From UHGV virus genome UHGV-0139183: 18,655 nt of DNA. The stretch is one strand, 5' to 3'. The translations under genes were made by a program, and so were the position numbers. Position 1 is the first letter of the stretch; the number at the start of each line of letters is the position of its first letter. A model generated the notes under the pieces. That model worked only from the letters and a program-made list of their open reading frames with translations, had not been told where the DNA came from and made no database searches. Shown in pieces: positions 18,104 through 18,605 of this stretch. This DNA is from a virus.

Positions 18104-18127
18104 AACCTGCTACGGCAGGTTTTTATT
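18104..18127. terminator. Hairpin terminator between convergent ogr and the downstream minus-strand gene
   Basis: AACCTGC-TACG-GCAGGTT stem-loop followed by TTTTATT on the + strand, with an A-rich tract upstream that could serve the opposite strand; overlaps the stop codon of the 18123-18605 gene. Confidence 0.6.
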
Positions 18128-18605
18128 CATCTGGGATCTCACCCGTTTCAAGAAAATGTATAAAGCCAGGCTCATCTATGATGATTGTGCCTTTCATCCT
18201 GGCTGCCGATACTTTTGATGGGCCTGCATTGTAACCGCAACAGAGCATCTGAAGGCTTTGGGTTATAGAGGTTCTTACCGTTAATCCTTGTTCATTCGCC
18301 TTATCAACCAATCTTTCTTTATCTGCTTTCTTAAATCCGGTGAAACACACATCGAATGTATTTTTTTTCGGACCAGACTGCTTAGTGAGATGTGAGTAGC
18401 TTTCGTGGAGGAATGACGCGCATTCCTGAATGGCTTGTTCTGGTGAATCGTACTGTTTAAGAATGCGGTCTTTTCGGAAGGTTTTTATTCGATCGGTGTT
18501 CTTACAAATGCCCTGTATATGATTTTCGCTATAACTGATGCTCTGTATAGAGTGAACAGCGATACGACCATTTGCATTGATGTAAACAAAGTGAAGTTCT
18601 TCCAT
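18123..18605 (-). CDS. Hypothetical protein: WYL-like N-terminal segment fused to a ligase-type BRCT-like domain
   Basis: 160-aa ORF with RBS AGAGG 6 nt before the ATG. Visibly AT-richer than the phage genes. C-terminal half (FTGF...GLTVRTSITQSL...GYNAGPSKVSAARMKGTIIIDEPGFIHFL) follows the pattern of the NAD-ligase C-terminal BRCT; N-terminal part ends in RIKTFRKDRI, resembling the RxFRLDRI signature of WYL domains. Domain calls are from motif recall, not a profile search. Confidence 0.55.
   Translation of the reverse strand: MEELHFVYINANGRIAVHSIQSISYSENHIQGICKNTDRIKTFRKDRILKQYDSPEQAIQECASFLHESYSHLTKQSGPKKNTFDVCFTGFKKADKERLVDKANEQGLTVRTSITQSLQMLCCGYNAGPSKVSAARMKGTIIIDEPGFIHFLETGEIPDE

Follow-up and report, generated by a model that had tools for sequence, protein, structure and literature searches.

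Genes and features at the right end of the prophage

The DNA analysed here, which we refer to as the window, is an 18,655-nucleotide stretch of the virus genome UHGV-0139183, and it represents the right-hand arm of a P2-like prophage, running from the capsid genes as far as ogr. The late-gene activator gene ogr marks the end of the late operon, and it is faced at the right end of the window by a convergent gene that we call the WYL-BRCT gene after the two domains of its product. The features of this region are as follows.

17878..18096, + strand: ogr, late-gene activator with a zinc finger (ORF; RefSeq 'ogr/Delta-like zinc finger family protein')
18104..18121: hairpin between ogr and the WYL-BRCT gene (terminator scan and RNA fold)
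18123..18605, - strand: WYL-BRCT gene, coding sequence including the stop codon; 160 aa, ATG start, member of phrog_2561
18144..18353, - strand: C-terminal BRCT domain, by sequence of the LigA/RFC1 class (residues 85-154)
18387..18599, - strand: N-terminal WYL-like module (five-strand Sm/SH3-like barrel, residues 3-52, and two helices, residues 55-73)
18612..18618, - strand: Shine-Dalgarno sequence AAAGAGG, 6 nt 5' of the ATG, read from the sequence

A minus-strand open reading frame for 160 aa convergent on ogr had been proposed from the letters alone, and it is found at exactly 18123-18605 with the hairpin at 18104-18121 between the two genes. The hairpin has a folding energy of -17.7 kcal/mol (z -4.47) and none of 200 shuffled sequences folds as stably. 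Because a T-run comes after it on the + strand, where it terminates ogr, and a weaker CTCTTTCTC on the - strand, it is a terminator common to both genes and probably bidirectional. Motifs of the AAAGG or GGGG type occupy the Shine-Dalgarno position in six other genera.

The GC content of the WYL-BRCT gene is 0.412, as compared with 0.555 for the remainder of the window and 0.461 for ogr. The gene is therefore AT-rich as the sequence-only reading had it, but the change in composition does not occur only after the ogr terminator; the fall starts at the end of gene D (~17800) and takes in ogr. The WYL-BRCT gene is also AT-richer than its flanks in 47 of the 49 genome loci described below.

Homologues of the protein form 112 protein clusters at E≤1e-3, phrog_2561 matches it over its full length (6.3e-76), and the 25 distinct E. 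coli-type alleles give a pN/pS of 0.157 in aggregate with a pairwise median of 0.119. With pN/pS values of 0.12-0.16 and relatives in this number, the gene is under purifying selection and is a genuine gene, more than a chance open reading frame. One of the 25 alleles has an internal stop, and in one E. coli strain (NZ_CP020835.1) the stretch matching ogr and the WYL-BRCT gene contains an IS1B element, with the gene region annotated as two hypothetical proteins; such occasional inactivation shows that the gene is dispensable for the host.

Attachment site and distribution

The chromosome of E. coli strain 63-2 is 100% identical to the window over the whole stretch, and there the WYL-BRCT gene is the last gene of the prophage, followed by ssrA (tmRNA), smpB and other host genes. 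The attL and attR sites share an identical 46-bp core that corresponds to the 3' end of ssrA, and this core starts 123 bp 5' of the WYL-BRCT start codon and 73 bp past the window end. The suggested position of the gene at the prophage edge is thus confirmed, whereas the partner genes envisaged beyond the window end are ruled out, since in strain 63-2 ssrA, smpB and host genes alone are located there. The genome of phage Cartapus, as recorded, has the 3' end of ssrA, its terminator and the WYL-BRCT gene in an unbroken run, which places attP directly upstream of the gene and indicates that the terminator copy at attR comes from the phage. The WYL-BRCT gene therefore travels with the phage.

The gene is present in 179 of 5426 complete E. 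coli genomes, and 172 of the 181 matching E. coli records also span ogr and the end of D. Phage records that carry it number 28 and comprise Escherichia, Yersinia, Mannheimia, Burkholderia, Vibrio and Pseudomonas phages. It is thus not a conserved chromosomal gene, which is what would have spoken against the sequence-only reading. We note that the RefSeq record NC_049342.1 ('Escherichia phage 500465-1') runs past the WYL-BRCT gene into host genes labelled as phage (smpB, ratA, bamE, recN, nadK, grpE and ffh), and is a mis-delimited prophage region. One further copy, in a Vibrionaceae MAG (locus L010, 620-1171; 54% identical), lies ~106 bp after tRNA-Trp and is followed by a gene of no known identity and then by tamA/tamB. 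We considered it as a second case of a gene at an att edge and rejected it, as the open reading frame is broken (95 aa) and lies beside tamAB; it is apparently what remains of the edge of an integrated element that has decayed.

The region next to the att site contains two features that are candidates for protein binding. The proximal arm of a 9-10-bp inverted repeat is located at 18632..18641 (ATGGCGACAG on the + strand), and its second arm lies just outside the window end (in the sequence of L001 9834-9882, the corresponding genome locus). The distal copy belongs to a 21-bp element, GTGGCGGCAAAATGGCGRCAG, at window-equivalent positions ~18672-18692 (L001 9873-9893), directly after the phage-supplied ssrA terminator. 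Seven sequences from six genera show hardly any variation in this element, while the ~45 bp that follow it in them are not conserved; the element is probably an integrase arm-type site or another att-associated binding site. The inverted repeat between the 21-bp element and the copy at 18632-18641 is formed in the E. coli type, and is a candidate integrase-arm or regulatory site.

The WYL-like N-terminal half

The AlphaFold model of the protein has a mean pLDDT of 91.1, and its N-terminal part adopts the five-stranded Sm/SH3-like beta-barrel of WYL domains. The Pfam WYL family PF13280 does not match the window protein even at E≤10, nor is its gathering score reached, and it gives weak matches in six of 54 family members (best 0.0018). 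Intermediate relatives provide the connection. An exhaustive search with an N-domain profile yielded 647 representatives, and PF13280 matches 20 of the 49 longest of these, with a best value of 1.2e-8. When the PDB sequences were searched with a broadened N-domain profile (A4) that has the window protein as its first row, the matches were PafBC (1.6e-7), a WYL-bearing ATPase (4.1e-5) and PafC (9.7e-5); the narrow profile A2 gave chance-level matches only (TubZ, streptokinase), and the relative P0181 gave BRCT matches and one marginal PafC match only. Because PF13280 recognizes 20 of 49 relatives and A4 matches PafBC, we assign the N-terminal half as a divergent WYL domain. The WYL-like N-terminus that the sequence-only reading had recognized is thus borne out through intermediates, and the string on which it relied, RIKTFRKDRI, is present at residues 39-48.

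The alignment with PafBC places x-Y/H-I-x-G-x-C on W-Y-F-E-A-Y-C and RTFRKDRV on RNFRLDRV. The W-Y-L strand motif is degenerate, with N28-H29-I30 in the window protein (Y in many relatives) aligning with W-Y-F of PafBC, and the R-x-F-R-x-D-R-I motif of the following strand is fully present as K41-T-F-R-K-D-R-I48. Y8 and T42 are invariant among 54 sequences, and F43 and R44 are conserved in at least 90% of them. In DriD, whose motif is N-Y-L, the residues Y192, R204, W206 and R207 contact ssDNA (PMC10853764); by motif, as distinct from superposition, H/Y29 of the family corresponds to DriD Y192 and K41-T-F-R44 to R204-x-W206-R207. The WYL half may thus bind ssDNA through its conserved tyrosine and arginine. 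The CapW residues R164 and R168, which flank the WYL strand and contact ssDNA (PMC11662680), are replaced by E27 and Q31 in a motif alignment, which leaves room for a ligand other than ssDNA, and some reports describe WYL domains in other proteins that bind RNA or c-di-GMP.

The BRCT C-terminal half

The C-terminal half has the alpha/beta fold of BRCT domains in the model, and here too the window protein falls short of the Pfam gathering score (18.8 bits for PF00533, against a cut-off of 21.3). PF00533 matches 44 of 54 relatives at E≤0.1 (best 2.1e-6), several homologues carry precomputed PF00533 assignments, and the family profile matches LigA and RFC1 at 3-5e-5. By sequence, therefore, the domain is of the LigA/RFC1 class, and the earlier recognition of a LigA-type BRCT C-terminus is well founded, the pattern FTG...AGPSK...II.E..F being present.

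The BRCT phosphate pocket is defined by S/T-G and a lysine at the start of alpha2 (PMC10386641). In the model, T89-G90 follows strand 85-89 and K131 stands at the start of helix 129-137, giving a complete pocket of the G-P-S-K variant seen in RFC1 and LigA; T89, G90 and K131 are invariant in 54 sequences and K96 is nearly so. Lys-208 of Rfc1 lines its 5'-end pocket (PMC9293004), and in an alignment of the family to RFC1 this residue falls in the aligned GPKK motif. The isolated RFC1 BRCT domain binds recessed 5'-phosphate DNA at ~10 nM, and BRCT domains of the LigA/RFC1 class bind nicked or 5'-phosphorylated recessed DNA (PMC9293004). By analogy, the pocket formed by T89-G90, K96 and K131 may grip a 5'-phosphate. 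LigA and RFC1 are the closest BRCT class to the family by sequence and have the same T-G ... G-x-S-K pocket, but in them the domain is fused to a ligase (adenylation, OB, Zn and HhH) or to an AAA+ clamp-loader, whereas here it is free-standing.

Domain architecture, family membership and database labels

Taking the two halves together, we consider the WYL plus BRCT identity of the protein to be close to certain. The barrel starts at residue 3 and is followed by two short helices, a flexible linker that joins the two domains, and the BRCT domain, which departs from the wHTH-WYL-WCX architecture. Searches of Pfam, NCBIfam and PADLOC gave no HTH family. The earlier statement that the protein contains no HTH or enzymatic domain is correct, the 160 residues being fully covered by WYL and BRCT, and a WCX domain is likewise missing. 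The protein differs in several respects from CapW, BrxR, DriD and PafBC, which have both a winged HTH and WCX: its WYL motif is the degenerate N-H-I, E27 and Q31 stand in place of the CapW arginines, a BRCT domain takes the place of the output module, and it is encoded by a phage within a lysogeny module.

The combination is common among relatives. About 104 of 143 N-domain representatives pair WYL with BRCT, 67 of them in minimal form, 22 extended at the N-terminus and nine at the C-terminus, and the pair is thus a stable module. Two extension families recur among these relatives, neither of which has a Pfam or PADLOC match. The gene had been described as an orphan, which is wrong: it belongs to the phrog_2561 family with its 112 clusters, and WYL+BRCT was listed among the WYL fusions by Makarova et al. 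2014 (PMC4012209). The proteins denoted phrog_2561 or 'BRCT domain-containing protein' in RefSeq, such as PHL101 ORF34 and Cartapus gp32, are members of the same family over their full length. The further statement that the family is uncharacterised stands, since it is catalogued and we found no experimental paper on any member in the literature. That 2014 domain survey is the only paper that we found to join WYL, BRCT and phage; the P2 hotspot papers and their supplements make no mention of the family, and a 'BRCT' match in an integron preprint proved to be a false match to 'BRiCs'. Both family and fusion were thus already known, as catalogued and uncharacterised; new here are that the WYL assignment is firm, that the phosphate pocket is of the RFC1/LigA type, and that the place of the gene behind CI, beside two described hotspots, is conserved.

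The databases nevertheless give the protein enzymatic names, phrog_2561 being called 'DNA ligase' and RefSeq phage records using 'DNA ligase' or 'putative exonuclease protein'. We give such an activity practically no credence. The LigA match is limited to the C-terminal ~100 positions (549-650 of 652) and the LigA models reach 18 bits against a cut-off of 444, with the adenylation, OB-fold, Zn-finger and HhH domains absent; similarly, the 'exonuclease' label of the Cartapus record reflects a match to NF004719 at 231-307 of 331, its BRCT tail, at 24 bits against a cut-off of 389, and the protein has no DEDDh (DnaQ-like) exonuclease domain. Because only the BRCT region matches, both labels have evidently been transferred from BRCT tails. 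The defence candidate PDC-S48 was rejected as the identity of the family for a similar reason, the likeness (3.6e-7, profile positions 333-406 of 411) being confined to its C-terminal BRCT domain with nothing else matched. PADLOC-DB v2 contains no full-length match to the protein, giving this partial PDC-S48 BRCT tail and a WYL model at 0.025, and the extended relatives show the same partial pattern with the rest of PDC-S48 unmatched.

Genomic context across the family

We surveyed the context of the gene at 49 genome loci and find two principal layouts in phages. The first, with ~70% identity, occurs in Erwinia, Klebsiella, Plesiomonas, Tatumella and Citrobacter and is that of the window, with tmRNA, then the WYL-BRCT gene, convergent on ogr-D-U-T. 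The second, with 28-49% identity and found at at least 16 loci, has CI, the WYL-BRCT gene, variable cargo and an integrase, all co-oriented, with a gap of 3-26 nt between CI and the WYL-BRCT gene; most lineages of the family have the gene in this position behind CI. The CI proteins are of two unrelated types, one as in 186/P2 (Phage_CI_repr plus Phage_CI_C) and one LexA-like (HTH_3 plus Peptidase_S24). At one locus (L030) the integrase gene follows the WYL-BRCT gene directly with no cargo. Annotated phages bear the second layout out. In Mannheimia phage PHL101 the operators and promoter are followed by CI and, 3 nt later, by the WYL-BRCT gene, whose ribosome binding site lies inside cI; Vibrio phage PV94 has an HTH repressor, the WYL-BRCT gene, a hypothetical gene and an integrase; and one Burkholderia phage has an XRE regulator, a hypothetical gene and the WYL-BRCT gene, which is convergent on D.

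The cargo between the WYL-BRCT gene and int includes the PADLOC candidates PDC-S20 (KAP NTPase) and PDC-S39. A hotspot between cI and integrase has been described in K139/PhiO18P-like phages by Rousset et al. 2022 (PMC9122126), and by gene order the cargo slot of the second layout is this hotspot. The circular order in the window phage is CI, int, cargo, attP and the WYL-BRCT gene. A 2026 preprint reports an integrase-att hotspot, and it is there that the cargo of this phage is located, ~34 kb away in the lysogen, at the other prophage end. In strain 63-2 the cargo is a 343-aa gene (L004 5489-6520) between the integrase and attL that overlaps a displaced 177-bp ssrA fragment; neither Pfam nor PADLOC matches it, and it is a candidate cargo of the integrase-att hotspot. 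It accompanies this integrase in 21 genomes whereas the WYL-BRCT gene is constant and present in 179, which excludes it as an obligate partner. Phage Cartapus carries a different 401-aa gene as cargo, and the label 'RES, NAD+ binding' of this neighbour was not reproduced by Pfam.

We found no conserved partner in the 26 loci outside the phage layouts. The neighbours there are integrases (five), AbiTii, AbiGi and McrB_N-HNH (one each) and otherwise housekeeping genes, and in about half of the distant loci the WYL-BRCT gene stands alone, away from any repressor. The family follows phage lineages over long distances and is not swapped as hotspot cargo is. The gene is a genuine accessory one, and it belongs to the module for lysogeny and integration of P2-like temperate phages (Peduoviridae).

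Two other regions of the strain 63-2 prophage and the window are of separate interest. In the same prophage a gene with a DUF262 domain (L004 15266-17047) separates the portal gene from the replication gene A/DinI region, at the site of the classical P2 old/tin defence hotspot. A 27-nt inverted repeat (8536-8562 and 10181-10207) of the TTCTCCCAAACC... type, 81% complementary, brackets ~1.6 kb containing the 3' part of a tail-fibre gene and oppositely oriented tail-fibre-assembly and gp53-like genes, and a Gin-like DNA invertase gene ('recombinase family protein', 10257-10829, + strand) adjoins the repeats. By analogy with Mu and P1, 8536-10207 is apparently a host-range segment capable of inversion.

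Expression

In the lysogen the WYL-BRCT gene lies 85 bp behind the ssrA terminator. A scan revealed no sigma-70 promoter of its own and none is conserved in a seven-genus alignment, and as a consensus promoter is lacking the gene is presumably transcribed by read-through or from a weak or unusual promoter. Read-through would originate from ssrA in the lysogen and from the CI-int transcript in the circular phage. In most phages the protein would be made in lysogens from the repressor transcript, whereas the E. coli phage studied here has the gene apart from CI and behind a strong terminator. We lean towards production in lysogens for the family as a whole, and regard it as somewhat less likely than not for the present copy.

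Proposed function

The sequence-only reading was cautious as to function, and justifiably so. Our best explanation, offered tentatively, is that the protein is a non-enzymatic two-module nucleic-acid sensor that serves as an immunity-associated accessory factor. Beyond the domain identities, binding to DNA structures seems its most secure component and is rather probable from the conserved residues of both halves. The WYL barrel would bind ssDNA without sequence preference, using Y8, H/Y29, K41, F43 and R44 in the manner of DriD, PafBC and CapW, and the BRCT pocket would hold a 5'-phosphate at a nick or recessed end as do RFC1 and LigA, such that the two together could recognise ssDNA/dsDNA junctions or gaps with a 5'-phosphate. 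Junctions of this sort would arise from DNA damage or from foreign DNA that is being injected or replicated. Made in lysogens, the protein would act there as an immunity-associated accessory factor, its role perhaps being to occupy or mark these intermediates and so hinder superinfecting DNA.

Phage accessory genes in comparable positions provide the analogy for this last step. The lambda rexAB genes lie behind cI in the lysogenic transcript, tin and old are accessory genes of the P2 lysogeny operon, and P2 Tin is non-enzymatic and acts on ssDNA-related replication machinery. The WYL-BRCT gene resembles these in its position behind the repressor, its AT-richness and in being dispensable for the phage type species, but there is no relation in sequence or fold, and an exclusion phenotype for this family is hypothetical. 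Exclusion of superinfecting DNA as the biological role is accordingly placed first among the readings on account of the rexAB-like position, the moron-like composition and the P2 Tin precedent, and yet it is itself rather doubtful: the protein has no effector domain and its sequence does not explain how an invader would be harmed. Furthermore, because the family tracks phage lineages, a phage-centred role fits at least as well as exclusion.

We rank the readings as exclusion, then a damage input to the CI switch, then control of cargo, and then counter-defence. A protein that senses ssDNA or gaps could act on the CI/Cox lysis-lysogeny switch, for instance through contact with CI or the recruitment of host factors, and P2-like phages would thereby have a way of responding to damage that is independent of RecA-mediated cleavage or adds to it. 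The tight coupling to CI proteins of two unrelated families with gaps of 3-26 nt, the long vertical tie to Peduoviridae lysogeny modules of Escherichia, Mannheimia, Burkholderia, Vibrio and Aeromonas, and the fact that all characterised WYL ssDNA sensors report DNA damage (PMC11662680, PMC10853764) are what one would expect from such a modulator. We nonetheless think it unlikely, as the protein has no HTH and no known surface for interaction with CI, it also accompanies the S24-peptidase CI that already senses RecA*, it is uncoupled from CI in the E. coli phages that integrate at ssrA, and it stands alone away from a repressor in about half of the distant loci. The neighbourhood could instead point to an HTH-less analogue of CapW or BrxR that activates or licenses the system in the adjacent cI-int or int-att hotspot. 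WYL regulators precede many defence systems (PMC4012209; PMC11662680), this gene is immediately upstream of PDC-S20 (KAP NTPase) and PDC-S39, and AbiGi and McrB_N-HNH are neighbours in two distant loci. There is also a related observation in the P4 hotspot, where system 14 has a ~100-aa stand-alone WYL protein with no HTH before the Kiwa genes, for which a regulatory role was suggested by the authors (PMC9122126 supplement); being stand-alone, it constitutes a second HTH-less WYL example in a phage or satellite hotspot. This regulation of cargo is less likely still, given that a sequence-specific DNA-binding domain is lacking, that the same protein occurs with unrelated cargo or with none (L030, and PHL101 and Burkholderia phages without annotated defence cargo), and that the cargo of the strain 63-2 lysogen is ~34 kb away at the other prophage end.

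The pairing of domains would also suit a protein that binds ends and junctions for the benefit of the phage, capping its DNA ends, nicks and ssDNA against host nucleases or hiding an ssDNA signal from host WYL defences. BRCT domains are reported to protect DNA from exonuclease digestion (PMC10386641) and the host proteins CapW and BrxR respond to ssDNA (PMC11662680). Anti-defence genes, however, are usually early lytic genes, whereas this one follows CI, and it bears no likeness to known anti-defence proteins in PHROGs or PADLOC; we regard counter-defence as improbable. With exclusion kept as the leading reading, a more general and speculative formulation, which we think unlikely, is that WYL-BRCT proteins make up a new class of HTH-less phage WYL transducers. 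These would sense ssDNA/5'-phosphate junctions arising from damage or from invading DNA and would signal by protein contact instead of transcription, as a conserved 'sensor socket' of Peduoviridae lysogeny modules whose target may be the CI switch or the defence cargo of the adjacent hotspot.

Implications

The 'DNA ligase' and 'exonuclease' labels that have spread through PHROGs and RefSeq phage records can be corrected, and as the WYL-BRCT gene flanks both the cI-int and the int-att hotspots it helps to delimit them. Should the protein indeed sense ssDNA and 5'-phosphate junctions in lysogens, no WYL sensor before it would have been shown to function in the absence of a DNA-binding HTH domain, and free-standing BRCT domains of bacteria or phages would have a function for the first time; it would also offer a handle on how P2-like prophages couple signals of damage or invasion to immunity.
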